IMG/VR virus record: IMGVR_UViG_3300044991_002272
Source of the DNA: a virus
Reading direction: 5' to 3' (one strand)
DNA length: 64,000 bases
The position numbers and the translations under genes are program-made. A model generated the notes under the pieces. That model did not search any database. It saw nothing but the letters and a program-made list of their open reading frames with translations, and was not told the origin of the DNA. Positions 1-14,740 of the stretch are shown piece after piece. Each line of letters begins with the position of its first letter. The first letter of the stretch is position 1.

Positions 1-883
1 CATAGAGCCCCAAACTCAAGGCCACCTCCATACAGGAGAGTTTGGAGTTGCCGCCAACAGCACTACTCATGCTACCAGAGGTGTCAACCATTGGAAGGAT
101 GTTGTCCTCACCCAACAGATTTGGTAGGCTGTCCCATTGAGCTTGCGCAACTTCTGCATCGCCATTACGCATGCTCTTCAACACATCGTAGGGAAAGAGA
201 ACGGAGCTGTTCACACGGGCAACACCAGTTTTCAAACCCTCTTTCCAAAGGTTGTAGCGTGCTGGATCATTTTTCAAAAAAGCCTTTTGATAGCGAGCAC
301 TGGCTACAGAAGGCAATTGGCTATAGTGAATGTTGTGCCATTGTCGCGCACACATCTGTTGTTCCACTGTGTGACATTGGTTAACCACTAACTGGCGATA
401 TTCTTTGGGAGTTTTGATTCCCAAGAGTTTGCGCAAGCGATTGGCTAGTTGTCCTTGGCGCGGGGCATATTTGGCTGCTAGTGCCTTGCCTTTGTGCAGC
501 TCATCAGCATAATATGCTAGTGCAACCTGTTGCACTAGTGGATGAGCAATACTGAGTAAGTCGTCATATCTACCAAACTCAGGGATCAATGTGAGCAAGC
601 GAATTGCCAGCTCTGGATCCTTCTCACACAGTTGGTTGAACAATTTCCGGAAAATATCGCGTTCACCAGCACCACCGCGTGCATCACGTGCCCAAAACAG
701 GGTTTTCACTGTCAGCAGTGTATCACAACTGAATGCAGCAGAAAATTGAGTAGACAGATTTTTGCCTCGACTGCTGCCGATGACAGCAAAGAGATCCAAT
801 ACAGGATTGTTGGTTGTTGCATTGGTGGGCATGCCATTGGCTGTTTCTGAGTGGGTGAGATCAACGGCTGCTGCAAAGCTCAT
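1..883 (-). CDS. DUF2828-like (TROVE-related) VWA domain protein, 3'-truncated by window edge
   Basis: Not in ORF track. Manual translation from ATG at 883: MSFAAAVDLTHSETANGM..VLDLFAVIGSSRG..LFWARDARGGAGERDIF..IPEFGRYDDL..AAKYAPRQ..LFPYDV..ILPMVDTSGSM (MIDAS DxSxS)..VALSLGLY; open to base 1. Confidence 0.8.
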   Translation of the reverse strand, partial: MSFAAAVDLTHSETANGMPTNATTNNPVLDLFAVIGSSRGKNLSTQFSAAFSCDTLLTVKTLFWARDARGGAGERDIFRKLFNQLCEKDPELAIRLLTLIPEFGRYDDLLSIAHPLVQQVALAYYADELHKGKALAAKYAPRQGQLANRLRKLLGIKTPKEYRQLVVNQCHTVEQQMCARQWHNIHYSQLPSVASARYQKAFLKNDPARYNLWKEGLKTGVARVNSSVLFPYDVLKSMRNGDAEVAQAQWDSLPNLLGEDNILPMVDTSGSMSSAVGGNSKLSCMEVALSLGLY

Positions 884-913
884 GCAAAATTTCCTCATGC
901 ATATGTGTAGTGA

Positions 914-942
914 ACTATACCCTGTAAACAGGGTTGTGTCAA
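914..942 (-). promoter_or_regulatory. sigma70-type promoter with palindrome in spacer
   Basis: TTGACA(942-937)-N17-TATAGT(919-914); ACCCTG-TTTA-CAGGGT inverted repeat at 934-919. Confidence 0.7.
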
Positions 943-1208
943 AAATGTCGCAGCTTGATTTCAGCAATCAATTCTTGGAAACTGTCATCTTTCAAATCAA
1001 GAGGAAAGCCTTGCAGTCGGTTATTGTAGATTGGCAGCGTGTATCTAGTGTTCTCTACTTCAAAAAAGATTACAAACTTGTCATTTACTACGTCTTGAGC
1101 TATATCAATGTTCTGAGCCGAGACTTCTGCAATGATCTCGTAGATCAAGGGGCTTAACCAACGATATGTTTGATAGCTGATGTATTGTGCATTTATTTGA
1201 GTAGTCAC
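939..1208 (-). CDS. hypothetical protein (89 aa)
   Basis: GTG start preceded by AGGAGA SD; fits gene spacing. Confidence 0.6.
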   Translation of the reverse strand: MTTQINAQYISYQTYRWLSPLIYEIIAEVSAQNIDIAQDVVNDKFVIFFEVENTRYTLPIYNNRLQGFPLDLKDDSFQELIAEIKLRHF

Positions 1209-1423: not shown

Positions 1424-1452
1424 AGGATATATGACAAATAGTGTTGTGTCAA
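1424..1452 (-). promoter_or_regulatory. sigma70-type promoter driving the structured leader
   Basis: TTGACA(1452-1447)-N17-TATCCT(1429-1424). Confidence 0.6.
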
Positions 1453-2273
1453 ATAGCAATTTCAATTTCCACTGGAGTCCAACCAAGGTTTTCACCAGGA
1501 TAGCCTCGAGCGTTGTTGATGTAGCGAACACCAGTCAGCACCCGGTCCTGACGATCATGCGTGTGACCAAAGCACCAAGCCCGAATGTTTGAGTTGGTGA
1601 TGGGTTCCAAGAGTGTGTTTGCATAACTGCCATTTAGCATAACCCACTTGGGGTTTGGATTATACTTCAGCAGTGCTCGATTTGGTGCATGATGCGTCAG
1701 TACCACCACTGGGTGTGCTGAGTTGGTTACAGTGTTTTGGATATACTCAGCATCCGCTTTTGCAGAGTCTACAATTGCTTGCACCTTGTATTCTGTTCCC
1801 CACTGGATATAGCGAGCATCATTCATGTAATGTAGGTAAGCTGAGGATTGCTGCTCAAAGTCAAATGGGCTACCAGCTTGGAAATCATGCCAACCAGTAG
1901 CACCCACAAACTTCACACCGTTGACCACAACACTACCTCGATGCAGAAATGAGACATTATGTGCTTTGTTGTATCGGCTGTAGTGGTCGTAGATTTCCTC
2001 AACAGTGCGCGGATAGGGATACTGAGCGTCAAACTCTGGGTCACTCAGTCGAGTGGAATGAAATCCTAGGTTATAGAAGTCGTGATTTCCAGCCACCCAA
2101 ATTACATGTTCAAATCGCTGACCAGCTTCACGCAGCCACCGGCTTCCAGCGCGAACATCATTTTCAATGTCGCCACACACCACAAGTGGAGTGGCAGAGT
2201 CAACCTCGTCAAGAAGCTGCCAATCCCACCCACTGTGGTCAATGTGAATGTCAGAGATGAGGGCAAATTTCAT
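1449..2273 (-). CDS. calcineurin-like metallophosphoesterase
   Basis: Motifs SDIH, GD, GNHD, HHAP, FGHTH. Confidence 0.92.
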   Translation of the reverse strand: MKFALISDIHIDHSGWDWQLLDEVDSATPLVVCGDIENDVRAGSRWLREAGQRFEHVIWVAGNHDFYNLGFHSTRLSDPEFDAQYPYPRTVEEIYDHYSRYNKAHNVSFLHRGSVVVNGVKFVGATGWHDFQAGSPFDFEQQSSAYLHYMNDARYIQWGTEYKVQAIVDSAKADAEYIQNTVTNSAHPVVVLTHHAPNRALLKYNPNPKWVMLNGSYANTLLEPITNSNIRAWCFGHTHDRQDRVLTGVRYINNARGYPGENLGWTPVEIEIAI

Positions 2274-3168: not shown

Positions 3169-3321
3169 TCAAATAGGCATGTGAATTTTTTGATGACGTT
3201 GAGTTTCAACCCTTTTCAATCGGCACTCAAAGTCAACAACATCAACAGCTTCACTCAGATAGCGTTCCTCATTGGTCATGCAATAATGGTGCCACCATTG
3301 ACGAATTTTTTCCAAAAACAT
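3169..3321 (-). CDS. small protein (50 aa), DUF3563-like
   Basis: Below ORF-track cutoff: MFLEKIRQWWHHYCMTNEERYLSEAVDVVDFECRLKRVETQRHQKIHMPI; GGAGA SD; TTAAATA late promoter at 3349-3343. Confidence 0.6.
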   Translation of the reverse strand: MFLEKIRQWWHHYCMTNEERYLSEAVDVVDFECRLKRVETQRHQKIHMPI

Positions 3322-3373: not shown

Positions 3374-4078
3374 TTACCATCTTGCATTTCCTTCAAATCC
3401 TGCATCTTCCAATTCTTTTTGGCAATCAAACATTGCTCGTTTGCCTTGTCCCAAGAATGGTTTCATTATGTTTATGACTTCAGTAGCTTTGCTGGGAAAC
3501 TCAATACTGGCGAGACTAAGGTTATTTGCCACCAATGTACGCAAGAGAGGCATGTCTTCGCGCCAATCGAGGGCTACATGAGACACATCCACAGGAAAGC
3601 CCTCTAGTGAGCGTAGATTTGGATTTCGTATAGCCACCATTATTCCATCTACTTTTTTGGGCCCGCCGATGAAATTTGTGATATTTGTGTCCAAAAGCAA
3701 AAACTCTCCGCGGATATGAACAGGCGCGCCTTGCAGGGTGCGTAGTGGGTTGTCTGAGCAGACATATGCCCCAAAAACTTCAGTAGGGCCACCTTCAAGT
3801 GAAGTGAGCTTGTTATCCTGACACTTAAAACTGCCTTCCACTGTATAAGGACAGCCTACTAAACTTTTCAAGTTACTATTACTCACATTGAAGTGTCGCC
3901 GCACATAACCAAACTTCACCGGCAGTGTTGAAGTGAGTTTGCCGTCAAATGTGCGAAAGTTTTTGTTCAACGCATCTACACCGGTAGCCGAGACTTGACC
4001 CTCGTCATCAATATCAACTGGACCAGAAAAGGCAAAATTGATTTTCAGGAGGTCCCATATGTCAGCTTCAGTTACCAA
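3374..4078 (-). CDS. LRR-like repeat protein, paralog 4
   Basis: LxSLEGxP repeats; C-tail LPLLRTL..FDCQKELEDAGFEGNARW; TTG start overlapping upstream stop. Confidence 0.85.
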   Translation of the reverse strand: MVTEADIWDLLKINFAFSGPVDIDDEGQVSATGVDALNKNFRTFDGKLTSTLPVKFGYVRRHFNVSNSNLKSLVGCPYTVEGSFKCQDNKLTSLEGGPTEVFGAYVCSDNPLRTLQGAPVHIRGEFLLLDTNITNFIGGPKKVDGIMVAIRNPNLRSLEGFPVDVSHVALDWREDMPLLRTLVANNLSLASIEFPSKATEVINIMKPFLGQGKRAMFDCQKELEDAGFEGNARW

Positions 4079-4752
4079 TGTGCGTTCCCTTCAAATCCAG
4101 CGTCCTCTAGATCCTTTTGGCATTCAAACAAGTATCGTATGCCGTTTCCTGCGTATTTGTTTAGAATTTGTTTGACTGTCCAAACGTCAAGATTATCAGG
4201 ATAAAATTCAATTTTTTTGGCCATTAGTGTGCGAAGCAAAGGCAGCCGGTTTTTGTATGTGATGTGTACAGTGTCGCCAACCTCAGGAAACCCCTCAAGT
4301 GACCGGAGCTTGGTATTACTGTAGCACCAAAAATCGCTGCCAACAGAGGCAGGTGCCCCCAGTAGTGATGACAACAGTGGGTTCTGTGAGCAATAGAAGG
4401 TGCTAAGAACTTCAACAGGTCCTCCCTCAAGTGATTTTAGGAGCTGGTTCTTTCGACAGCGAAACCCTGTGACTTTTTGTGGGGCGCCAGCTAGTGATGT
4501 GAGTTTAGTGTTGTCGCACCAGAAATCACCGCCAATCACTTGGGGTGCACCTTCAAGAGATATCAATTTTTCGTTGTTTCTGCAAAAGAAATCTCCAGCT
4601 ACATCACCAAACCGCACAGGCAATCTCGCCGTATCGTGTGTTAGCTCCACATGCCCATTACAAGAGACCAGTCCGTGATCGTCAATGGTTATCTCACCAG
4701 TTGTTTTAAAATATTTTTTCAACAACTCCATTATTTCATTCTTGTCTACCAC
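4072..4752 (-). CDS. LRR-like repeat protein, paralog 3
   Basis: SLEGAP repeats; same C-tail ending GFEGNAHW; GTG start. Confidence 0.85.
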   Translation of the reverse strand: MVDKNEIMELLKKYFKTTGEITIDDHGLVSCNGHVELTHDTARLPVRFGDVAGDFFCRNNEKLISLEGAPQVIGGDFWCDNTKLTSLAGAPQKVTGFRCRKNQLLKSLEGGPVEVLSTFYCSQNPLLSSLLGAPASVGSDFWCYSNTKLRSLEGFPEVGDTVHITYKNRLPLLRTLMAKKIEFYPDNLDVWTVKQILNKYAGNGIRYLFECQKDLEDAGFEGNAHW

Positions 4753-5480
4753 CTTGCATTTCCTTCAAATCCAGCATCTTCCAGTTCTTTTTGGCAATCA
4801 AACATTGCTCGTTTGCCTTGTCCTGCATAGAGGTTTAAAATTGTTTCAATTGTTTTGTCCTCTCGGTAGGGATAGAATTGAACCTTTTTTGCCAGCAAAC
4901 AACGAAGCAGTGGCAAAGTGGAGCTATAGGAGAGATGTAAGATTCCAGGTATGGTTGGCAAGCCTTCAAGTGTGGTGAGCTGCTGGTTGATGTGGCAGAA
5001 GAAATCACCACCAACTGAAGTGGGTGCACCTTCAAGTGTGGTGAGCTGGTTGTTGTAGCAGAAGAAATTACCACCAACTGAAGTGGGTGCACCTTCAAGT
5101 GTGGTGAGCTGGTTGTTGTCGCACCAGAAACTACCACCAACTGAAGTGGGTGCACCTTCAAGTGTGGTGAGCTGCTGGTTGCTGCACGAGAAATCACCAC
5201 CAACTGAAGTGGGTGCACCTTCAAGTGTGGTGAGCTGGTTGTTGTAGCAGAAGAAATTACCACCAACTGAAGTGGGTGCACCTTCAAGTGTGGTGAGCTG
5301 GTTGATATGGCAGAAGAAATCACCACCAACCTTATCAAAAGCAACAGGCAATCTCTTCAACTTCTTTTTTAGATTTACCATACCTGTACAACTAACCAAT
5401 CCCTTATCATCAATGGTTATTGAACCAGTTGTTTTGAAATTAGCTTTCAACAAAGCCATTATTTCTTTTTTGTCTACCAT
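4746..5480 (-). CDS. LRR-like repeat protein, paralog 2
   Basis: Near-identical 21-22 aa repeats LTTLEGAPTSVGGxFxCxxxQ; same C-tail. Confidence 0.9.
   Translation of the reverse strand: MVDKKEIMALLKANFKTTGSITIDDKGLVSCTGMVNLKKKLKRLPVAFDKVGGDFFCHINQLTTLEGAPTSVGGNFFCYNNQLTTLEGAPTSVGGDFSCSNQQLTTLEGAPTSVGGSFWCDNNQLTTLEGAPTSVGGNFFCYNNQLTTLEGAPTSVGGDFFCHINQQLTTLEGLPTIPGILHLSYSSTLPLLRCLLAKKVQFYPYREDKTIETILNLYAGQGKRAMFDCQKELEDAGFEGNARW
4963..5332. repeat. 63/66-bp tandem coding repeat (about 6 units)
   Basis: ccttcaag anchor at 4963, 5029, 5092, 5155, 5218, 5281; 42-bp block accaccaactgaagtgggtgcaccttcaagtgtggtgagctg identical in five copies. Confidence 0.95.
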
Positions 5481-6112
5481 TTTGCATTCCCTTCAAATCC
5501 AGCATCTTCCAAGTCCTTTTGACAATCAAACAAACCCTTTTTGCCTTTGCCAGCATATTTGTTCAATATCTTGGCTACCTGGTAAGCCTTCTCGAAAGTG
5601 TCACCTGTGTTTGAGAACCCAACTTCCTTAGCAACCAAAGTTCTCAACAAAGGCAAACTATTGTGCCATGTTAAGTCAACACTTGTTCCAACGTGGTTAG
5701 GAAACCCTTGTAAGGAGGTTAACCAGTTACCATGGCAGCTGAGTCTGCCTGGAATTTCAGTAGGCAGGCCTGTTAAATCACTCAAACGATTATAAGAGCA
5801 ATTGTATTCGCCGCCTACAATCTTTGTTGGTCCATGTTCAAGAGACTCTAGTTCGTTACCAGAGCAATAAAAGGACCCGCACTCTTGTGGCGCACCTAAG
5901 AGAGATTCAAGCCCCATGCTGGCAAAGCCGCAGACGCCTGTGACTTTTTTGAAACGCACAGGTAGCTGGGGAAAGGATTGCCCTACTCCCCAAGCTACAA
6001 TATCACCGTCAACAACTATCTCATTACTGGGACTCAAGGAGATTTTGGTTGTGCTAGGCACATCAAAATTTTTGTAGACCCAACTCTCTACTTGTTCTTT
6101 TGTGTCCAGCAT
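5474..6112 (-). CDS. LRR-like repeat protein, paralog 1
   Basis: ESLLGAP/ESLEHGP/SDLTGLP repeats; same C-tail; start MLDTKEQV at 6112 overlaps upstream TGA (TGATG). Confidence 0.85.
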   Translation of the reverse strand: MLDTKEQVESWVYKNFDVPSTTKISLSPSNEIVVDGDIVAWGVGQSFPQLPVRFKKVTGVCGFASMGLESLLGAPQECGSFYCSGNELESLEHGPTKIVGGEYNCSYNRLSDLTGLPTEIPGRLSCHGNWLTSLQGFPNHVGTSVDLTWHNSLPLLRTLVAKEVGFSNTGDTFEKAYQVAKILNKYAGKGKKGLFDCQKDLEDAGFEGNAKW

Positions 6113-8421
6113 CAGAGGTGACTGAAGTTGGGTGTGTTTTGACCCAATTTTTTGACAGCCTTGCGCCAAGTGTATTCATTATCACTTATGAAAAACACAT
6201 TCCTTTTGTGGGCTTTCCACATTGTCAAGAATTGTTTCCAGTTTTGAGAATCATCCACGATGTCACTGTCACTAAAGATCATAATATTGAATCCTTCCGC
6301 AGCAGCAGCACTGAGCTGACTTGCCATGGAACCGCTAAACAGCGTGGCACCAGTGCCATGCTGTTGCAGCACATTGTTCCATCCTTTTATTTGTTTGTTT
6401 TTGTCCACAGGTTGACTCAATTGACTTAGGTTGGCGATAGGAGCGTAATAATTTTGCCCTTGATTTACAACAAAGTTTTCATGATCTCCAGCGAAAAACA
6501 TAACACCAAAAGGATAATCCACTTTGCCCAATTGTTTCAACAATGTTTCTGCTTCTTTCAAAGCTTGTGGCACAGCAGCCCACATGCTGCCTGAAGTGTC
6601 AAAAACAAACAACACTTTGTTAACAGGAACAGGACGCTTGACTTCACCGGGTTTGATTGCTGCCGCGCCCAGTTTGGCTGCTATGGGTGCGCCAGTAATG
6701 TTTCTTCGGCTGGGTTTGGTATAACTGGTGTCAATAGCCAATTGGCTGCTGGAAACCATTTTCCTAATCAAAGCTTTCCAGTTCATTTTAGGAGTAATAT
6801 CTTCCACACGTTTTTTGGCAGTGCCTAATGTCAAGTCACCACTGGCTCTAGATCCAGATGTACTCTGTTGTTCAGGTGAAGGAGGAGGCGGCGAATCCCG
6901 TTCTTCACGATTTTCCAATTTGTCTTTCAACTTCTCGTGAATTTCATCAGGAGTTGGTCCATAGACTTTTTTAGGTTTTTTACCTGCCTTTTCGCCTGGC
7001 TTTTTTTCTTTTTCTTCGCTAGGAGGCGATGGCGGTGGTGGAGGTGGAGGTGGTTCGCCTTCCATTTGAGTTTGTGGTGGAGGCGGAGTATCAGAGGGAG
7101 GAGCAGGAGGTGTAGGCGGTTGCGAACCTGGGTCCTTATAAGGTTGCATCCAAGTTACGTCATCAGATTTCCAACGCCCTTCCATCAAGACTCGTTTTTG
7201 GCGGCTTTCCGTTAAATTGCCTCGAGCTACACCAGTTCCTTTGGGGTAGTTCAATTTTTGTGTGGCTTGGTCAGGTGTCAAGATTTGTGTGTCAAAAGAA
7301 CCATCAGGATCAATTTTTGTGACTTCACCATAGGATCCATCTGGTAAGCGTACAACGTCTCCCACACTGGCTTTGTAAGGCACTTTGATTACAGGTGCAT
7401 CAGGACCTTTGGGTTGGGGTGGCAGTTTGTTGGGTTCTTCATCAATTTCTGCCATACCTTCCCAAGTTTTTCTCAAATGGGGTGGCAGCTTTTTCAACTC
7501 ATCGTGAACCAATTGGGCCATTTCGCTATAGCTGCTTTGCCGGTCACTATTGATGTGATCGCTGAACAAGCCTATTGGCAACTGTTGGTAATTGTTTTTG
7601 ACTAAGTCGTAATTGCTACGGAAATCGCTTGCCCAGTTGTGTATTTTGTGACTGAACTCTGGCATTTGTTTGCCATAATTGAAGTCACCCCAGGCAAAGT
7701 GCATGTATTCGTGCATAATGAGAAACTCCACATACACATATGCATCTGGAATAGATCCGCCATTGCTTTGATATTTCTTGCCTTCGCCTTGGGCACCTTC
7801 AATTACAGCCCAGTCCATGAGATTTTGCATGAAATGAGTATTGAAAACAAAGTCTCCACGTTCTGTAGCACAGGCAGTTTTCACACCATTGAACTTTTTG
7901 AACTCTGGCAGATCGCTAGGAATCAAAATGGGATGAACTTTCCAGATTCTGCGAATTGGGTCAGCAGGTTGTTTCAAAGGGCGGAACATAGGATGCTCTT
8001 GCTGAACCATTTGAGCCAGTTTCAAAAACGTTGTGGGATCAAACTGAACCAATTGTGGATTTGGACGATTGGTATTGTGCCGTACTGACGAAACTAGATC
8101 AAACACCGCATTCTCAGCAGCATTGTGTGCAATTGTTTCATACAATATAGGACTATATTTTTTGATCTCTTCAATTTCTGCCATTTTTTTCTTAACATCA
8201 CGAATGATAATTGCCACAGGTACACCTGTGACTTCACTTGCATGTTGAATTACTTCTTGAATATGAGGATCTTGTAGAGAACTCTTTTTGAAGGGCGTTT
8301 CGCCCATTTCGCGTGCACGCATAGTCCAAGCCTCAGTAACCCTTGTTCTGGCGGTTACTGAGGTCTTGGTATCCAAAGCCAAAAGTGTTTTGGCTAAATT
8401 GCTCTTGACAGAAAATGCCAT
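6112..8421 (-). CDS. DUF2201-like Zn-metallopeptidase + Pro-rich linker + VWA domain protein
   Basis: HEYMH (HExxH), poly-Pro linker, MIDAS FDTSGSM..T..SDSD. Confidence 0.85.
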   Translation of the reverse strand: MAFSVKSNLAKTLLALDTKTSVTARTRVTEAWTMRAREMGETPFKKSSLQDPHIQEVIQHASEVTGVPVAIIIRDVKKKMAEIEEIKKYSPILYETIAHNAAENAVFDLVSSVRHNTNRPNPQLVQFDPTTFLKLAQMVQQEHPMFRPLKQPADPIRRIWKVHPILIPSDLPEFKKFNGVKTACATERGDFVFNTHFMQNLMDWAVIEGAQGEGKKYQSNGGSIPDAYVYVEFLIMHEYMHFAWGDFNYGKQMPEFSHKIHNWASDFRSNYDLVKNNYQQLPIGLFSDHINSDRQSSYSEMAQLVHDELKKLPPHLRKTWEGMAEIDEEPNKLPPQPKGPDAPVIKVPYKASVGDVVRLPDGSYGEVTKIDPDGSFDTQILTPDQATQKLNYPKGTGVARGNLTESRQKRVLMEGRWKSDDVTWMQPYKDPGSQPPTPPAPPSDTPPPPQTQMEGEPPPPPPPPSPPSEEKEKKPGEKAGKKPKKVYGPTPDEIHEKLKDKLENREERDSPPPPSPEQQSTSGSRASGDLTLGTAKKRVEDITPKMNWKALIRKMVSSSQLAIDTSYTKPSRRNITGAPIAAKLGAAAIKPGEVKRPVPVNKVLFVFDTSGSMWAAVPQALKEAETLLKQLGKVDYPFGVMFFAGDHENFVVNQGQNYYAPIANLSQLSQPVDKNKQIKGWNNVLQQHGTGATLFSGSMASQLSAAAAEGFNIMIFSDSDIVDDSQNWKQFLTMWKAHKRNVFFISDNEYTWRKAVKKLGQNTPNFSHL

Positions 8422-8439
8422 TGTTGGTCCTATCTTTGA

Positions 8440-11136
8440 TTATGTTCCTGCTGGTTTTCTGAAACTTCTTACTTTGGCTGCAATCTTGCGTTGATAATCC
8501 ATCAACGTGTTTTGATACCCCTCTACAGCAGCCAAGGCAGCTTTTGATGCAGCCTGATCAGTTTTGGCAAGATCTTTAGCCTCTTCTTCCATTCTCTCAA
8601 TATCAGCAATGAACACGCTGCTCCAGAACTTTCTCAACGCAGCTTCCATACTTTGTCCAATTTGGCTACTGAGCTTGTGAACATTCATTGCCATGATAAT
8701 TTCATCAACAATGAAGTTCACTTTGTCGATCAAATCTTGGCTTATTTGAACTACACCATCTTGCATGACTTTTTTGTTATGCGTTTTGCTGACCAACAGA
8801 TCAAACTTGTTGGCCTCTTGTGCAGCAACGTTTGTTAACCAAGCTAGGAACTCATTGGTGAAGTCAGCTGGGCTGAATTGTGTGTCAACCCAATTCATAA
8901 ATGCCACATTGTCTTTCAAATGCTTGCTGGGATTACGAACTGCGCTGTCAAAAATACTTTCAAGTGAGGCACCAGTTGTTTCCGCAGTTGTGAGCTTTTC
9001 TTTTTGTTCTTGTAACCATAGATCCAGTTGATCCACAAACATTTCTCTATCAACTTCGTTTTTGAAGAGAACATTGTCCATAGTCATCATAATCTTTTTG
9101 CTGGCCATTTTCAACACTGCATCAACGTAGCTATCACTGTCAAATTCGCCGTCTGGTCTCACAAATTGCTCTTTTTTCTCAACCACTCTATCCAAACCGC
9201 GTTGAAGTGCCAACAGCATGTCTGAATACTCTCTGCCACTGATATACACATCGTCATCGCCCACTTGAATATAAAATTGGCGGCTGTCAGAATGGATGTT
9301 ACGGCTGGGGTCAGGCACGTCCAGTTTGAATTTATCTGCAAAGTTGTGAACCAACATACGAGCTATTTCACTAGCCTCTTCACTCAAATCAGCCCGCATC
9401 AAAGCCTCGCTATCATGGAAATCCTTTTGCGAACTCCATCGAGGCGCGGCAGCAATATAGTCGGTTGCGTCTTTCATATGGCCAGTTAGTGGTTGTGTTT
9501 TGATATCAGTGGGATTCATAGCAGCCACAACAATTATATTGTAAGGCAGCTTGACATCATCAGTGAAACTTTTGTTCAAAATCACTCTGCGCAATGTGTT
9601 ATAAGTGGCTGCTTCTTCAGGACGATTGAATTCATCAAAGAACAAGAGATACTGCTTGGATTTTTCAAGCCATTCTTGTTTCCTGGCTTCAGAGATTTTG
9701 GATGAGTTAAGAAAAGCTTCTTTCTTCTTCTCCATCTCATCCATAATCTTCTTATACAATGGAGGATCAGCAAACTTCACATCATATCTGCCGTCCTTTT
9801 CTTGAGGCAATGGAATACCTGTTACATCTTCAGGACGCAATCCACTGCAAGAAACACGAATAAGGCGCAAGTTCAACTTGTCAGCAATGGACGCCATTTC
9901 TGCGGTTTTACCAATGCCAGGTTGTCCAGCAACAATAGGAACATAGGCTCTAGCATCGCCCATTTTTTGAGCCATTTCAACCTGATGCATCAGGGTATCA
10001 CGCCAAAGAGTTGGACTGTTGGGGCTTACTGATGCCAGTTCACTACCACTTGTATCTCTGATAATATCTCGGACTATGGCATCAACCTTGCTGTATAGCT
10101 TGCTGGTGTTTTCAATGTCCTGGAAATTGGCTTTGATATTGGCCAAAAGAGCAGCAGCATCTTCTGTTGTTTTGACTGGCACTGCTGCATTTACATAACT
10201 GATAATCTGTTCCCAGCGACGAGGACTTGTTCTGATTTCATTCTCAACATCATCAAAACTGATGTGCTCATCTTTTATGGCTTTGTAAAAAGCTGTTGCT
10301 ACCTCTGGCTTGAGATGCACACCATCTTTTTCAAATTTGGCAGTCAAATAATGAAAGAAATCACTTTTGTTGGGCGGGGTGAAATGAATTTGTTGAAACT
10401 GATAATTCAAAGGCATTTTTTCAACAGTGCCACCCACATCTTGTAGGTTGCTGGCATACAAACTATACACGTTTGACGGCAAAGGATCTTGACCCACTCG
10501 TTTGTCAATCACCAATTCACGCAAAATGTTGCGCACACCGCCAGTTACTTGGCGCATGAACTCATCAAGGAACAGGATACTTTTGTATTTGCTACGAACC
10601 TCACTGACTCTGCGAGGAATACTTGTGTTGGTGCCACCTAATGCTTGCCAAATGGCCTTGGTGTTGTTGCTGGCATTGGTGTTGATATGATTCAACAGTT
10701 CTTGGTCACTGACTGGCTTTTGGGCTTGTAACAGGGAAACCAAGTGACTTTTACCATAAACCACGTCCCAGTCTTTTGTGCTGATCTGTTCACTACCGGC
10801 TTTTTTGGCTTTGGTAAGGGGATTGTAGACCATAAAAGGAATGTTAACAAGATGCTCTTCAGTAATGTGCGGAGCTTCCACAACCACTGCATTCATACCC
10901 ACTAATTCAGCCAACTGTGCAACAAAGGTGGTTTTGCCAATACCAGTTGGTCCCACAAGGATAACACCTGAAATGTGATCCAGCATGTTGTCCAACACGT
11001 CTTCAATCATTTCTGTTCGAGAATTCAGTGTAGCACTGCTGACAGATATTTTGGCTGGTGCTGGTTTTGCGCCACTGCCGGGAGAGACAGCTTCCAATAA
11101 TGCGTTTTGTAATACTCTAGTAATCTTTGATTTCAT
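8440..11136 (-). CDS. MoxR-like AAA+ ATPase with two tandem ATPase modules
   Basis: GPTGIGKT..LFLDE..YASN and GQPGIGKT..LFFDE..AAMNP; start MKSKITRV at 11136. Confidence 0.85.
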   Translation of the reverse strand: MKSKITRVLQNALLEAVSPGSGAKPAPAKISVSSATLNSRTEMIEDVLDNMLDHISGVILVGPTGIGKTTFVAQLAELVGMNAVVVEAPHITEEHLVNIPFMVYNPLTKAKKAGSEQISTKDWDVVYGKSHLVSLLQAQKPVSDQELLNHINTNASNNTKAIWQALGGTNTSIPRRVSEVRSKYKSILFLDEFMRQVTGGVRNILRELVIDKRVGQDPLPSNVYSLYASNLQDVGGTVEKMPLNYQFQQIHFTPPNKSDFFHYLTAKFEKDGVHLKPEVATAFYKAIKDEHISFDDVENEIRTSPRRWEQIISYVNAAVPVKTTEDAAALLANIKANFQDIENTSKLYSKVDAIVRDIIRDTSGSELASVSPNSPTLWRDTLMHQVEMAQKMGDARAYVPIVAGQPGIGKTAEMASIADKLNLRLIRVSCSGLRPEDVTGIPLPQEKDGRYDVKFADPPLYKKIMDEMEKKKEAFLNSSKISEARKQEWLEKSKQYLLFFDEFNRPEEAATYNTLRRVILNKSFTDDVKLPYNIIVVAAMNPTDIKTQPLTGHMKDATDYIAAAPRWSSQKDFHDSEALMRADLSEEASEIARMLVHNFADKFKLDVPDPSRNIHSDSRQFYIQVGDDDVYISGREYSDMLLALQRGLDRVVEKKEQFVRPDGEFDSDSYVDAVLKMASKKIMMTMDNVLFKNEVDREMFVDQLDLWLQEQKEKLTTAETTGASLESIFDSAVRNPSKHLKDNVAFMNWVDTQFSPADFTNEFLAWLTNVAAQEANKFDLLVSKTHNKKVMQDGVVQISQDLIDKVNFIVDEIIMAMNVHKLSSQIGQSMEAALRKFWSSVFIADIERMEEEAKDLAKTDQAASKAALAAVEGYQNTLMDYQRKIAAKVRSFRKPAGT

Positions 11137-11138
11137 TA

Positions 11139-11399
11139 TCAATCCCATTTCAATATACGAGCCCACAAGTCTGGATCAGTGTCTCTAATCAGTTCCAATT
11201 CACTACCTGGCTTCACTGAGTGACCAGGAGGCAACACACCTGTCATAGGCTGAGAGGTATTGTGTGTTACCTCTCGCATTTGGTGAGGGATTTTGAATTT
11301 TAACTTTTTCTCAACCAATGATGGTGGACTGGCAACAACGGATTGCGTGGTCTTTTTTTGAGGTTTTTGTGGCTTTTTGGCAAATTCGTTGGCTTGCAT
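11139..11399 (-). CDS. hypothetical protein (86 aa)
   Basis: ORF with GAGGA SD downstream of a late promoter. Confidence 0.6.
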   Translation of the reverse strand: MQANEFAKKPQKPQKKTTQSVVASPPSLVEKKLKFKIPHQMREVTHNTSQPMTGVLPPGHSVKPGSELELIRDTDPDLWARILKWD

Positions 11400-11425
11400 A
11401 AGGATTTCCTCGTGAATTTCAAAGG

Positions 11426-11432
11426 TATTTAT
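11426..11432 (-). promoter_or_regulatory. T4-type late promoter ATAAATA
   Basis: Heads the 86aa-AAA-VWA-LRR operon; the motif recurs upstream of many genes. Confidence 0.65.
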
Positions 11433-11445
11433 TGTAGTGCACGGT

Positions 11446-12861
11446 TTATGATTTGTTGCGAGGCAAAGATTTCAAAAGAGCTTGAGTCTCTTTTTTGTAA
11501 TTGTCGCGAATCTTTTTGGGATCTTTGAGCAACTGTTGCAGTGCATCAATTTCAAGGGTCAAGCGTGCAATGTCTTCAATAATCTTCTCAACACTGTCCT
11601 TGGACCATCGATAGCTGGGAAGGCCTACAATTCGATCCAGTTGGTCTTCGTCTAGGCAAACGCCTTTGACCAGTTTTTCAACTCTAGCTTGCACTTCAGC
11701 ACGATTTTGGGCCAAGGGCAAGAATTTGGGCAAGCCACCCTCAACACAGAGTTTGATAGCTTTGGCAAAGTTCAGTTCTCGTGTGAGATCAGCAATTTGT
11801 TTTTCATAACGCTTGGCATACCAACTTAGTCTCCACTCCACAAATGCTTGCACTAGCGACTCAGGATTGGGATATTGGCGGATGCTGGCGCCGTTGAAGT
11901 CTAGAACAACCAATCGCTGTGTTGTCTTGCTTTTGAGTTTCAAAAATCCAATGAACTTGTCTTCATCCCAGCCTTCAATCGAACCTCTTTTGAATCTGAT
12001 TTCTACGTCAATTGTTTTGGTGCTGCGGTCAATGTAGGTGGTGATGCTGCCGTCATCTTCCATTTGATTTAGTCGAGCTTTGAACTTTTCAAGGCTGAGA
12101 TCAGGCGGCAACTCAGTTACCCGTAACACTGTGCTGCCTTCAATCTTGACCTTTCCGGTGAACTCATAGCTGTTATTGCCAAGAGAATTGACACCTACAT
12201 TGAGATAATCAAAGCTGGGCAGTAGTGCGGGCAATGGTTTTTTGTCAATAGCAGCCACAGTTGCAGCCACTAGGTTTTCCAAGCTGTGGGGCAAGATCTC
12301 TGTACTCCAGCCCACAGCAATACCGCTCACACCATTTAGCAGCACCAATGGCACAAGTGGCAGAAAGTTCACTGGTTCCAGAGTGCTGCCATCATAATTG
12401 GGCTTCAATGGCACAATGTCAAGGTCAGTGTAGAGCAATGCGTCAGCAGCCCGACCACGTTTTACATAAGTGTATCGAGGTGCACCCCAACTGTCTGGAC
12501 CAACTCGAGTGCCAAATGCACCAATGCCATCAAACAATGGAACATTGTTCAGATACGGTGCTGCCAGTCTACTGATGGTTTCAGCAGCACTAACGTCTCC
12601 GTGAAGAAACAGCCCTTCTTGAATCGCAGAACCGGCAAGGCTGATGGTCTTAACCTTCTCACTTTTGCTTCTCATCAACCACAGCATCTTACGTTGTCCA
12701 TCCTTCAAACCATCACAAATGCTGGGAATAGCCCGGTTTTGGGCAGTGTAGATGGCATATTCTTTGGAGCTTGTGTTGATGAAGGCGCTTGTTTGCCCGC
12801 CAATGTCCACAATGTCTGGTGTCACAGGTGTAGTTGATGTTCCTGCTCGAGACTTCTTCAT
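11446..12861 (-). CDS. type IIA DNA topoisomerase, GyrA/ParC-like subunit (T4 gp52-like)
   Basis: RAIPSICDGLKDGQRK, HGD, GAPRY active-site Tyr; start MKKSRAG 1 nt after upstream stop. Confidence 0.95.
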   Translation of the reverse strand: MKKSRAGTSTTPVTPDIVDIGGQTSAFINTSSKEYAIYTAQNRAIPSICDGLKDGQRKMLWLMRSKSEKVKTISLAGSAIQEGLFLHGDVSAAETISRLAAPYLNNVPLFDGIGAFGTRVGPDSWGAPRYTYVKRGRAADALLYTDLDIVPLKPNYDGSTLEPVNFLPLVPLVLLNGVSGIAVGWSTEILPHSLENLVAATVAAIDKKPLPALLPSFDYLNVGVNSLGNNSYEFTGKVKIEGSTVLRVTELPPDLSLEKFKARLNQMEDDGSITTYIDRSTKTIDVEIRFKRGSIEGWDEDKFIGFLKLKSKTTQRLVVLDFNGASIRQYPNPESLVQAFVEWRLSWYAKRYEKQIADLTRELNFAKAIKLCVEGGLPKFLPLAQNRAEVQARVEKLVKGVCLDEDQLDRIVGLPSYRWSKDSVEKIIEDIARLTLEIDALQQLLKDPKKIRDNYKKETQALLKSLPRNKS

Positions 12862-12862
12862 G

Positions 12863-14740
12863 TTAAATTTCCATCCATTGTTTTCTGAGATCAGCTTTTG
12901 TGTGATTGAACAAGAGGTCAAGAGTCCCGTCAAGTTTGCCATCATCAGTCAAAGGCACAAGCCTGGGCTTCAACAAACTGTTGCGCCAATCAACTTCTTC
13001 CAAACTGCCCAGGCCCTTTGCCCTAGTGGGCTTGGGACAACCTTCCCAGTCACGTCCATTGTAATTGGTGTGGTCATCACTGTACCAATAATGCCGGTTC
13101 TTTTTCTTGTCCTCTTGAATAATGAATGGTGTTGAGAACACAAGGAAAAATGGTTGTTGCTGAGGATCAAACAATTCTGACCAGTGCAGATAAAAGAAGT
13201 TAACCAAAAGAGCCATAATGTTAGCGCCATCTGTGTCACTGTCACAAGTGATCCACACTTGTCCATACCTCAAGTTGTCACGAACACATTTTTGTCCCAG
13301 TGTTAGCCCAATGCTGCTCATGATGTCTTGTAGCACACTGTTGTCCAACACTGTTTTGTTGCTCTCACCTCTCACATTTAGGATCTTGCCCCGCAAAGGC
13401 AGGCCACCATGCACATCTGGATCACGCACCGCTGCCACACTGCTAACTGCCGAATCACCTTCTGTAATCAACAAGATGCATTTGGTTCGATCTTTTCCTG
13501 TGGCATCCATTAGCTTGGGCACTTTGGTGCGCAGCACTTTTCGTGCCAGCTTGGCTGTTTCAGCATCATCTTTTTTCTGAGTACGAGCTGCACAACGGGC
13601 ATAGATTTGATCAATCCATTCTTTGTGATCCTTTTGAATCCTCTTGTACAGCTTGTCGTCATCCAAGGCTGTGCGAATGTATGACTCCACGTCCTCATTG
13701 ATTAGTCTTGTTTTGTTTTGGCTATCAAAGTTAGGAGCGTGCATCTGCGTAATATTGTAGACCAAGATGCCTTCTTGAATGTCACTTCTGTTGGGTGTGA
13801 GTGCCCGCCTACGACTTTCTTTCTCTAAGCTTTTGAGAAGATTGGAGAAAAATACACGTTTGAACACATCTATGTGGTGCCCACCGTTGAACGCAGGAAT
13901 ATCATTTACTGTGCTGTGAACAAACTCACCCTCAGTTTGAAAATTTGGCACAAGGAAAAATGTGCTGAGAAAATTGTCTGCTTCCGAGGTGATTTTGATG
14001 AAGTTGGAATCTGAGAAAAATGTTTTCTCCACAGTGTTTTTGACAACCACTTTTTCACCATTGAATGTGAATTTAACAGTGGGATGATTGGCTGCCACCT
14101 CATACACTCGAGATTGAACAAAACTTGTGGGCAGGATGCGATGTTTGAACACACCCTTGCTGAGAGTGAAAGTCAACTCTGTGCCAGACTTGGCTGCGCT
14201 TTTGATGATTTTGGGATCACTTACTTGTAAGTCTTTGAACACAGCATTGGGTTCGGAAAATGTTTGTGTAAACTTGCTGCCGTCCCGATACACGGTTACT
14301 GTACTGGTTTCACAGCAATGGATTGTAGCCGAGCTGCCAATACCATTTGTGCCTCGGACTTCCCCACGTTCGCCAAAATTACGTCCAGCACGTGGATACA
14401 CCAGCACCATAGTGGCTTTGTGCATGTTTTCACTTTCATCCCAGTCAATGGGAATACCACGCCCATCATCTTTCACACTGAAGCTGCCTGCTGTTTCATC
14501 GTAAGAAACGTCAATACGGGATCCAGAGCTGTGACCAATTACCTCATCTAGAGCATTATCAAATATCTCGCGAAAAGCGCAATACATGGCTGGTGTCCAT
14601 GTGACTTCTTGTGCTTCCAGTTTTTTGCCAGTCCAGTTGATGACAGTTTGTGTATGCGGGCTTCTGCTGCCCAAATACATTTCAGTGCGTAATCTGATAT
14701 GGTCCCCGTCGCTTAGCTTCCTGATATCGTTGTTGCTCAT
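12863..14740 (-). CDS. type IIA DNA topoisomerase, GyrB/ParE-like subunit (gp39+60-like, unsplit)
   Basis: EIFDNALDE, DDGRGIP, GTNGIG, TEGDSA, PLRGKILN, DSDTDG, KGLGS. Confidence 0.95.
   Translation of the reverse strand: MSNNDIRKLSDGDHIRLRTEMYLGSRSPHTQTVINWTGKKLEAQEVTWTPAMYCAFREIFDNALDEVIGHSSGSRIDVSYDETAGSFSVKDDGRGIPIDWDESENMHKATMVLVYPRAGRNFGERGEVRGTNGIGSSATIHCCETSTVTVYRDGSKFTQTFSEPNAVFKDLQVSDPKIIKSAAKSGTELTFTLSKGVFKHRILPTSFVQSRVYEVAANHPTVKFTFNGEKVVVKNTVEKTFFSDSNFIKITSEADNFLSTFFLVPNFQTEGEFVHSTVNDIPAFNGGHHIDVFKRVFFSNLLKSLEKESRRRALTPNRSDIQEGILVYNITQMHAPNFDSQNKTRLINEDVESYIRTALDDDKLYKRIQKDHKEWIDQIYARCAARTQKKDDAETAKLARKVLRTKVPKLMDATGKDRTKCILLITEGDSAVSSVAAVRDPDVHGGLPLRGKILNVRGESNKTVLDNSVLQDIMSSIGLTLGQKCVRDNLRYGQVWITCDSDTDGANIMALLVNFFYLHWSELFDPQQQPFFLVFSTPFIIQEDKKKNRHYWYSDDHTNYNGRDWEGCPKPTRAKGLGSLEEVDWRNSLLKPRLVPLTDDGKLDGTLDLLFNHTKADLRKQWMEI

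Follow-up and report, generated by a model that had tools for sequence, protein, structure and literature searches.

A jumbo-phage gene block encoding a tandem AAA+ ATPase, a peptidase-VWA protein and variable LRR-cap proteins, best read as a phage variant of the MoxR-vWA ternary systems

Analysis of a 64-kb stretch of DNA from a lake-water jumbo phage (the window) revealed seven coupled genes on the minus strand, between positions 3374 and 11399, which encode a small protein of 86 aa, an AAA+ ATPase, a peptidase-VWA protein and four LRR proteins (Table 1). The AAA gene follows the 86-aa gene after 2 nt and the peptidase-VWA gene follows the AAA gene after 18 nt; LRR1 then overlaps the peptidase-VWA gene in a TGATG, and LRR2-4 each overlap the preceding gene by 7 nt. 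The start codon of LRR4 is a TTG located inside the ...W-stop codons of the preceding gene. Gene content and junctions, as first described in a sequence-only reading of this DNA, were reproduced. A small gene (61-86 aa) is also present upstream of the ATPase in relatives, and alignment with those of L023, L024, L025 and RsoM2USA_87 showed that the deduced proteins share the C-terminal end ...P.L[WY].K[IV].NWD; RsoM2USA is a cultured jumbo phage whose host is Ralstonia solanacearum. No Pfam, PHROG or NCBIfam family was matched by the 86-aa protein.

Table 1. Positions of the genes, domains and motifs of the block in the 64-kb window
Feature	Position	Strand	Details and basis
ATAAATA heptamer	11426-11432	-	candidate T4-like late promoter core, 27 nt upstream of the 86-aa gene start
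86-aa gene	11139-11399	-	ORF call
AAA gene, 898 aa, ATG start	8440-11136	-	Pfam AAA, AAA_5, AAA_3
Peptidase-VWA gene, 769 aa, DUF2201-type	6112-8421	-	Pfam DUF2201_N, AlphaFold model, homologue alignment
Putative metallopeptidase domain, residues 33-327	7441-8325	-	pLDDT mostly 80-95
HExxH, residues 237-241	7699-7713	-	invariant in 21 homologues
Disordered Pro/Lys/Glu-rich linker, residues 432-537	6811-7128	-	pLDDT below 50
VWA domain, residues 545-769	6115-6789	-	Foldseek, homologue alignment
MIDAS motif DxSGS, residues 608-612	6586-6600	-	invariant in 21 homologues
LRR1, 212 aa, 4 repeats	5474-6112	-	tail-coding part 5477-5677
LRR2, 244 aa, 6-7 repeats	4746-5480	-	tail-coding part 4749-4949
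LRR3, 226 aa, 5 repeats	4072-4752	-	tail = residues 160-226, coded at 4075-4275
LRR4, 234 aa, 5 repeats	3374-4078	-	tail-coding part 3377-3577

The heptamer upstream of the operon is found in 10 copies in the window, six of which lie about 20-35 nt upstream of start codons. At positions 11426-11433 the octamer reads only AATAAATA, as against the TATAAATA of T4-type late promoters, and the canonical octamer TATAAATA was not enriched across the 64-kb window. The late promoter claimed earlier is thus retained as a heptamer match that often precedes starts but not as an enriched octamer, and late timing of the operon, deduced from this candidate motif, is plausible.

The ATPase chain of 898 aa, identical to a protein already on record, contains two AAA+ modules (approximately residues 40-330 and 390-600) followed by a helical C-terminal region. 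It matched PF07728 (AAA_5) with 47 bits (cut-off 22) and PF07726 (AAA_3) with 32.4 bits (cut-off 27), and both Walker A (GxxGxGKT) and both Walker B (DE) motifs were invariant in 21 homologues. The best PDB match of the ATPase profile was midasin (E 1e-13). Judged by the AAA_5/AAA_3 models and the Walker motifs, the protein is assigned to the MoxR/dynein-midasin clade. At least 266 full-length homologues were found, many of them on contigs of 280-460 kb.

The AlphaFold model of the peptidase-VWA protein showed, in order, a zincin-like domain, a small beta domain, a Pro-rich disordered linker and a VWA/MIDAS domain. Residues H237, E238, H241 and D246 of the first domain were all invariant in the alignment of 21 homologues. 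The window protein matched PF13203 with 28.5 bits (cut-off 23.2), covering only profile positions 192-258, while its RsoM2USA homologue, gp85, gave a fuller match (positions 62-258). The matches listed in the fold search of the model were filled by the VWA domain; the HExxH domain is termed a putative metallopeptidase, on the basis of its motif and of a Pfam family itself labelled "putative". In L023, L024, L026, L029, L040, L049, L055 and L059 the gene is split at the linker into a peptidase gene and a VWA gene, and one lake population carries an 18-bp in-frame insert in the linker. Residues D608, S610, G611, S612, T693 and D720 of the C-terminal domain were likewise invariant in that alignment. 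The top Foldseek matches were the VWA domains of NorD in NorQD complexes (E 1e-5, prob 1.0); a probability of 1.0 was also obtained for integrin I and ANTXR VWA domains, and a VIA alignment of the model gave Z 11.4 with an rmsd of 3.5 over 151 aligned residues. The model is that of a VWA fold with an intact MIDAS. The earlier assignment of the two proteins as a MoxR-type ATPase and a VWA protein agrees with the Pfam AAA_5/AAA_3 models, the midasin sequence match and NorD as top VWA fold.

Alignment of the four LRR proteins revealed that both termini are conserved while the number of repeats differs, and the motif CQK[DE]LEDAGFEGNA.W occurs exactly four times in the six frames of the window, always at an LRR gene end; variable repeats joined to a constant tail, as had been proposed, are thus indicated by both analyses. 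The repeats have a period of 20-22 aa, with 4-6 per protein. Repeat entropy was highest at every second position of the beta-strand (G-x-F-x-C-x), and the 21-aa repeats of LRR2 are near-identical, differing only at exposed strand positions. The LRR identity of the four proteins was undetected by the Pfam search. The LRR profile matched the LRR domains of SspH1, SspH2 and IpaH (E 7e-8), and LRR3 was modelled confidently (pLDDT 96.4, pTM 0.91) as an N-cap helix, a solenoid and C-terminal helices; the LRR fold claimed from the letters was borne out by this match and this model. SspH1 LRR was also the top Foldseek match of LRR3, with prob 1.0 but E 0.04 and TM 0.50.

In the model the tail forms helices at residues 172-177, 188-200, 204-217 and 221-224 and closes the LRR solenoid as a folded helical cap, well packed with pLDDT of about 90-96, which rules out its reading as a loose free tag. 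The cap bears a patch of conserved acidic residues (E/D at 214, 217 and 221 of LRR3). An NEL E3 ligase of the IpaH/SspH type was also rejected, since the proteins stop 60-70 residues past the last repeat with a four-helix cap and no Pfam match was obtained. Full-length Pfam searches with the LRR proteins and seven distant tail proteins found no F-box or PRANC motif. The tail family comprises approximately 3,400 clusters at 50% identity, with up to about 30 copies per genome; it corresponds to no Pfam model and no NCBIfam or PADLOC family, and no paper on it was found in the literature searched.

Homologous ATPase genes from IMG/VR, metagenomes and RsoM2USA formed 32 lineages (70% identity clusters), 26 of which were informative; apart from RsoM2USA the phages are uncultured jumbo phages. 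Tail genes were located at most 1 kb from the ATPase block in 19 of these 26, which share less than 70% AAA identity with each other, so that the synteny and co-occurrence test proposed in the sequence-only reading came out in favour of the association. The tail genes, one to nine of which usually stand beside the pair, lie upstream of the block in RsoM2USA, L032, L048, L058 and L060, downstream in the window, L023-L026, L036 and L049, and between ATPase and peptidase in L035 and L039; in RsoM2USA, with 34% AAA identity, they are on the opposite side of the block from the window. The peptidase/VWA gene follows the ATPase in all adequately flanked loci except L033 and L041. When 50,697 phage records were searched with the ATPase, the peptidase-VWA protein and the RsoM2USA-type tail protein, each of the three matched only RsoM2USA. 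Since the complete genomes G007 and G009 (approximately 360 kb) carry tail genes at only few loci, adjacency by chance is estimated, without a formal test, to fall well below 19 of 26.

Tail genes occurring independently of the pair had been named as the finding that would count against a common system; no complete genome with tail genes and without the ATPase was found. Large distant arrays exist in genomes that carry the ATPase. The majority of tail genes in G007 and G009 are distant from the ATPase; G007 carries at least 28 tandem copies at 285-350 kb, with its ATPase at about 17-20 kb. In four lineages the 5-9 kb next to the ATPase contain no tail gene, and in G010 (85% complete) the ATPase is present and a tail gene was undetectable. 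These loci speak against a single module, as does comparison of the window with its near relative G001, in which the ATPase and peptidase-VWA genes showed only 63-81% DNA identity while LRR1 and the flanks were 99-100% identical. LRR1, near-identical beside two divergent cores, thus either works with both or ignores them. Within one population, LRR4 allelic differences cluster in the repeat region (3583-3923), and lake metagenome assemblies break at LRR2.

Such distributions and the swapped ATPase/VWA cassette would fit genes that are neighbours without physical coupling, the LRR-tail proteins being an independent, fast-evolving host-interaction family whose cap binds another conserved partner, a host or a phage protein, the ATPase pair maturing or remodelling an unrelated client, and the genes sharing timing and an inherited order. 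The 400-kb relatives L023 and L024 keep a wider order of topoisomerase, module, metallophosphoesterase and DUF2828, so part of the linkage may indeed be inherited synteny. Against this stands the persistence of the linkage through rearrangement of the tail genes around and between the two core genes, through divergence of the ATPase to 34% identity and in L041, where the peptidase-VWA gene next to it has been lost, together with translational coupling across the whole window operon. We consider uncoupled neighbours improbable.

Further evidence comes from RsoM2USA, whose virions were purified through a sucrose cushion (pelleted, not gradient-banded) and gave ten gel bands, among which LC-MS/MS assigned bands to ORF86 and ORF89, the latter matched to its full-length predicted mass of 28.6 kDa, while ORF85, the peptidase-VWA homologue, was absent from the bands (PMC8504454). 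Comparison of coordinates identified ORF86 as the ATPase homologue and ORF89 as a tail-protein homologue. The gel points to virion association of both homologues.

These two bands, together with the late-promoter-like motif, would also suit a virion morphogenesis chaperone, in which the ATPase/VWA pair acts in the assembly or remodelling of parts of the virion and the LRR-tail proteins are virion components such as decoration or adhesin subunits, anchored on the particle by the cap and binding cell-surface or environmental ligands with their variable faces. The large paralogue sets resemble the multi-receptor-binding sets of other giant phages, and in Acidianus two-tailed virus (ATV) the MoxR protein p618, one of the major components of the virion, binds both a VWA protein and virion proteins. 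However, the module sits among DNA-metabolism genes, outside the structural cluster, ORF85 was not among the bands, no match to the structural PHROG category was obtained, and the LRR proteins, small solenoids that appear to be monomeric, do not carry the trimeric fibre features usual in phage receptor-binding proteins. A chaperone of this kind is a minority possibility that we regard as unlikely, though worth keeping in view.

The LRR-tail proteins might instead be substrates, their conserved termini serving as recognition signals for the ATPase, which would unfold the proteins, and for the HExxH domain, which would cleave them, for example in activation or capsid loading. T4 is known to have internal proteins that are targeted to the capsid and processed by a protease, and both the conserved termini around a variable middle and the fusion of a peptidase domain to the VWA adaptor are in keeping with such a role. 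Since the tail is modelled as a well-packed cap and not as a disordered degron, and the ORF89 band was of full-length mass, we find this reading very unlikely.

Relatives keep the genes together and two of the proteins are found in RsoM2USA virions; the ATPase, the peptidase-VWA protein and the LRR-cap proteins are therefore probably parts of one machine, as yet undescribed. In its full form, to which we give a little less than even confidence, this would be a single functional module of ATPase ring, VWA protein and cap-docked LRR receptors, made late, carried in the virion and remodelling targets. The ATPase would form a six-module ring like that of midasin, for example from three tandem chains, with the VWA protein seated on it as NorD is on NorQ. 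The LRR cap would dock on the MIDAS site or on a different conserved surface, and each LRR concave face would hold a separate target, most likely a host protein, which ATP-driven pulling would remodel and the HExxH domain may cleave. After late synthesis at least some of the proteins would be packaged in the virion and act as soon as the next infection begins. That the targets are host defence proteins is pure inference. A still bolder version, which we think doubtful, is a virion-delivered, programmable remodelling or degradation platform, in which a midasin-like ring and a zincin-MIDAS subunit take up dozens of swappable LRR receptors through the new cap, each hitting another host protein, for example one of defence; in bacterial viruses it would correspond to the SCF/F-box or poxvirus ANK-PRANC adaptor systems, but work without ubiquitin.

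MoxR-vWA pairs are common and poorly understood, and to our knowledge few of their clients have been identified. In the present case a phage lineage with genomes of 300-460 kb keeps such a pair beside a large LRR family. If the cap docks on the core, phages would possess a modular targeting machine, and a role would be found for a major family of "dark" genes in jumbo phages. The exchange of divergent ATPase/VWA alleles between otherwise identical lake phages, the variable exposed LRR positions and the two proteins in virions of a cultured relative all fit host-virus conflict, and RsoM2USA offers a cultivable system for direct work on the module.

In the MoxR/VWA pairs NorQ/NorD, CbbQ/CbbO and RavA/ViaA, an AAA_5/AAA_3 ATPase gene likewise stands directly before a MIDAS-intact VWA gene. 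The phage-encoded module differs from them in having two AAA+ modules per 898-aa chain with a long helical C-terminal region, an N-terminal HExxH domain on the VWA protein and an LRR third part, with no metalloenzyme client near it. In midasin (Rea1/Mdn1) AAA modules are likewise concatenated, and the chain also contains a long linker, charged or disordered, and a MIDAS domain that holds small adaptor proteins by an acidic residue; the MIDAS of Rea1 was also among the fold matches of the phage VWA domain. Midasin, however, carries six modules and the MIDAS in one chain of 4,900 aa and acts on pre-ribosomes, whereas the phage has two modules per chain and the MIDAS on a separate, peptidase-bearing protein.

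Short bacterial-type repeats of 20-22 aa are shared with the LRR domains of SspH1/SspH2/IpaH, the phage proteins being without the NEL ligase domain. F-box/LRR and poxvirus ANK-PRANC proteins also join variable repeats to a constant docking module and have many paralogues, a likeness by analogy only. Among viruses, p618 of ATV is stimulated by the proteins that it binds, the VWA protein p892 and several proteins of the virion (PMC4124505). By this published description it is, like the RsoM2USA homologue, a virus-encoded MoxR ATPase of the virion, but ATV is an archaeal spindle virus whose system has one AAA module and lacks both a peptidase domain and an LRR family.

In the bacterial vWA-MoxR ternary conflict systems a core is accompanied by a conserved third protein with variable sensor or effector parts, and it was proposed that vWA captures a peptide of the third component while MoxR restructures the complex (Kaur et al. 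2020, PMC7159879). Those systems serve bacterial defence, with VMAP, iSTAND, FtsH or a beta-propeller as third part, while the phage third part is a multi-copy LRR-cap family; the Pfam search of the window proteins gave no match to the VMAP family. The sequence-only reading knew of no description of the combination; in the literature searched this agrees with the LRR-cap third part, but a MoxR-vWA core with a third component (PMC7159879) and a virion MoxR/VWA pair in an archaeal virus (PMC4124505) are described. With the three-gene linkage looked for in ternary systems found here in 19 of 26 lineages, the jumbo-phage block is best read as a real module and a phage variant of the MoxR-vWA ternary systems.

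Analysis of the window revealed seven head-to-tail genes on the minus strand, from 11399 to 3374, coding for an 86-aa protein, an ATPase, a peptidase-VWA protein and four LRR proteins of 212-244 aa. The gene order and junctions described in the sequence-only reading were all found, the start codons of LRR2 to LRR4 falling within the final codons (..W-stop) of the preceding gene. The late promoter proposed in that reading was retained in part: the ATAAATA heptamer is present ahead of the 86-aa gene and occurs in ten copies in the window, six of which are located 20-35 nt ahead of a start codon, but the T4 octamer TATAAATA showed no enrichment in the window, and therefore late expression of the operon is only a reasonable guess from a promoter-like motif.

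Directly 3' of LRR4 is an ORF of 50 aa whose ribosome-binding site is good; it may be cotranscribed with the module, and is followed by a sigma-70-like promoter ahead of a coiled-coil gene. The window also codes for a metallophosphoesterase and a DUF2828/TROVE-like protein whose VWA motif is DxSGS; their order after the module recurs in relatives of 408 and 460 kb, with an HSP70 gene next in line. About 20 metagenome runs, lake or aquatic, contained the window DNA, and no RNA run was listed among them.

Features of the module, its surroundings and the tail-gene arrays of a relative (window nucleotides unless stated otherwise)
Feature	Position	Strand	Remark
Topoisomerase subunit, T4 gp52-like	11446-12945		Upstream of block
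ATAAATA heptamer	11426-11432		Ahead of 86-aa gene
86-aa gene	11139-11399	-	First in block
ATPase, 898 aa	8440-11136	-	Start 2 nt past stop of 86-aa gene
Peptidase-VWA, 769 aa	6112-8421	-	18-nt gap after ATPase gene
LRR1	5474-6112	-	TGATG overlap with peptidase-VWA gene
LRR2	4746-5480	-	7-nt overlap with LRR1
LRR3	4072-4752	-	7-nt overlap with LRR2
LRR4	3374-4078	-	7-nt overlap with LRR3
50-aa ORF	3169-3321	-	Directly 3' of LRR4
Sigma-70-like promoter	3162-3134		After 50-aa ORF
Coiled-coil gene, 200 aa	2531-3133		
Metallophosphoesterase	1449-2273	-	
DUF2828/TROVE-like protein	2-967	-	Extends beyond window edge
Peptidase-VWA, N-terminal domain	residues 33-327		AlphaFold, confident; HExxH at 237-241
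Peptidase-VWA, small beta domain			AlphaFold; between N-terminal domain and linker
Peptidase-VWA, linker	residues 432-537		AlphaFold; Pro-rich, disordered
Peptidase-VWA, VWA domain	residues 545-769		AlphaFold
Tail-gene arrays L082 and L083 of genome G007	G007:C1:287500-306000 and 334500-348500		At least 28 genes, 191-233 aa

Pfam matches of the ATPase (AAA, AAA_5 and AAA_3) fell in two separate modules, and both Walker A and both Walker B motifs were invariant among 21 ATPase homologues of 33-53% identity. The best solved relative of the family profile was midasin (E 1e-13) and the PHROGs match was 'ATPase' (phrog_1297). A single-sequence PDB search with the ATPase and VWA proteins gave P-loop-level or chance matches only; in NCBIfam and PADLOC the ATPase was matched at the P-loop level only and the other module proteins were without match. 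At least 266 full-length members of the ATPase family were found, many of them on contigs of 280-460 kb. Among 50,697 phage records the sole ATPase match was the cultured Ralstonia phage RsoM2USA, and the phage-record matches of the peptidase-VWA protein and of the RsoM2USA tail protein were likewise RsoM2USA alone. Megablast against phages yielded no DNA match to the region. The search of 185,579 prokaryote genomes gave one match, a 330-kb contig (CAZFPB010000002.1, locus L102) of a MAG filed under Pseudobdellovibrionaceae, which is probably a mis-binned jumbo phage.

The peptidase-VWA protein matched Pfam DUF2201_N and was modelled by AlphaFold in four parts. Its HExxH and MIDAS residues were invariant among 21 homologues, and several relatives carry separate peptidase and VWA genes, split at the linker. 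In Foldseek the best matches of the VWA domain were NorD in NorQ-NorD complexes (E 1e-5), and the VIA alignment gave Z 11.4, rmsd 3.5 and 151 aligned; the matches listed in fold searches with the 769-aa protein were taken up by this domain. The PHROG family matching the pre-VWA/VWA part is labelled 'HNH endonuclease', which we regard as a misnomer. In one lake population an 18-bp in-frame insertion was observed in the linker-coding region, at window position 7013.

None of the four LRR proteins matched Pfam, and their family profile matched the LRR domains of SspH2, SspH1 and IpaH (E about 1e-7). In the AlphaFold model of LRR3 (pLDDT 96.4), a cap helix at the N-terminus leads into a solenoid of 20-22-aa repeats, closed at the C-terminus by a four-helix cap. 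The constant C-terminal tail noted from the sequence is real and corresponds to this cap, which in the model is folded into the LRR domain and is not a free peptide. A conserved acidic patch of the cap comprises LRR3 residues 214, 217 and 221. Across the 20 repeats of the four proteins, variability was highest at alternate residues of the strand G-x-F-x-C-x; the LRR2 repeats have an identical scaffold and differ at these alternate strand positions only. LRR3 homologues such as P0159, P0171, P0194 and P0235 share the repeats and carry other conserved C-termini (...GFDELGLF, ...DLSDIGL), which suggests alternative cap or tail types. CDS0008 of Vibrio phage VB_VaC_SRILMA (L101:3950-4585, 211 aa), adjoining a DnaB-like helicase gene, shares the 21-aa repeat (53% identity to LRR2) and has no tail; this repeat type therefore also occurs outside the module.

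To survey the linkage, six-frame ORFs of 46 ATPase loci (32 lineages at 70% ATPase identity) were scanned with tail HMMs and both halves of the peptidase-VWA protein. A peptidase/VWA gene followed the ATPase gene in all loci with flank except L033 and L041; these two, with no detectable peptidase-VWA gene beside the ATPase gene, have tail genes nearby, directly adjoining in L041. The synteny expected from the sequence-only reading was recovered in relatives, a tail gene being located within 1 kb of the block in 19 of the 26 lineages with informative flanks and within 5 kb in three more, with none in four. Relative to the block, tail genes are located upstream in RsoM2USA (ORF88-90) and downstream in the window; L035 and L039 have them between the ATPase gene and the peptidase-VWA gene. 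In the window and the four relatives compared, the ATPase gene is preceded by a small gene with a shared ...NWD end, and the larger order of topoisomerase, module, metallophosphoesterase and DUF2828 is kept in two 400-kb relatives. As far as gene order can tell, this looks like a functional module, with a contribution from shared ancestry of that order.

The tail family extends far beyond the module. With a profile built from 68 tails, 3,408 representatives clustered at 50% identity were matched, 1,097 of them at E 1e-10; in nearly all, the domain occupies the extreme C-terminus of a 180-260-aa protein. The domain is not represented by any Pfam family. When the window tail and a G007-type tail protein were compared with phages by tblastn, neither was matched; divergence within the family is too great for BLAST, which does not link the window tail even to RsoM2USA. 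Protein-atlas look-up of the tail returned viral hypothetical clusters only, with scores below 0.8. The complete 360-kb genome G007 carries, distant from the ATPase gene, at least 28 tandem paralogues of about 200 aa ending ...CQ.ELIDAGFEEYAKL, with variable N-terminal halves and only 2-3 LRR-like repeats. G009 has 11 dispersed tail copies, two adjoining the ATPase gene, and G010 (85% complete) has the ATPase gene and no tail gene. No ATPase was found in G002-G006 and G011-G015, which carry large LRR-tail arrays and are all 4-62% complete fragments; three of them break off within arrays 74-93% identical to LRR2, so that the ATPase gene may be located immediately beyond the end of the contig. 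In view of the distant arrays and of G010, the core may be shared by many tail proteins whose genes lie elsewhere, or the tail may have a different binding partner. That LRR-tail genes and the ATPase/VWA pair are uncoupled neighbours is unlikely.

Alignment of the window with its near relative G001 (locus L003), likewise a lake phage, revealed 99-100% DNA identity on both flanks of the core and an unchanged LRR1, while the ATPase and peptidase-VWA genes (window 6234-11244) were just 63-81% identical, apart from a conserved island at 8311-8911 (96-97%). The two core genes were thus exchanged as a pair and behave, in these alignments, like a single allelic cassette that can be swapped, a pattern suggestive of co-adaptation and diversifying selection. 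Within one lake population the core was about 99.5% identical and the differences between metagenome contigs clustered in the LRR4 repeats, mostly at third-codon positions; with DGR-type diversification considered as the other option, these look like recombination between alleles. Lake metagenome assemblies break in LRR2, and the many joints between tail-coding regions, seen in contigs only, may reflect paralogous copies in other parts of the genome and therefore do not demonstrate array rearrangement.

RsoM2USA virions pelleted through sucrose gave ten Coomassie bands assigned by LC-MS/MS, including ORF86 (96 kDa) and ORF89 (28.6 kDa) (PMC8504454). ORF86 is the ATPase homologue and ORF89 a tail protein, and the coordinates agree with the RsoM2USA locus. 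In Acidianus two-tailed virus, a MoxR ATPase carried in the virion is known to bind a VWA protein (PMC4124505), and by analogy the module might act in virion assembly, a rather doubtful reading. That the LRR proteins are substrates appears quite improbable. Our tentative preference, held at somewhat below an even chance, is that the module encodes a MoxR-vWA ternary machine of the phage whose interchangeable partners are the LRR-cap proteins, with late synthesis and partial packaging. In such a machine the LRR-cap proteins would dock on the MoxR-vWA core, the LRR proteins would have targets of their own and the machine would carry out proteolysis.

The combination had been considered undescribed, and a literature search (jumbo-phage MoxR/VWA/LRR, DUF2201 and paralogous LRR families) found no description of the module. 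A MoxR-vWA pair with a third component is, however, a theme already described (PMC7159879), and therefore what is new here is only a variant of that theme.
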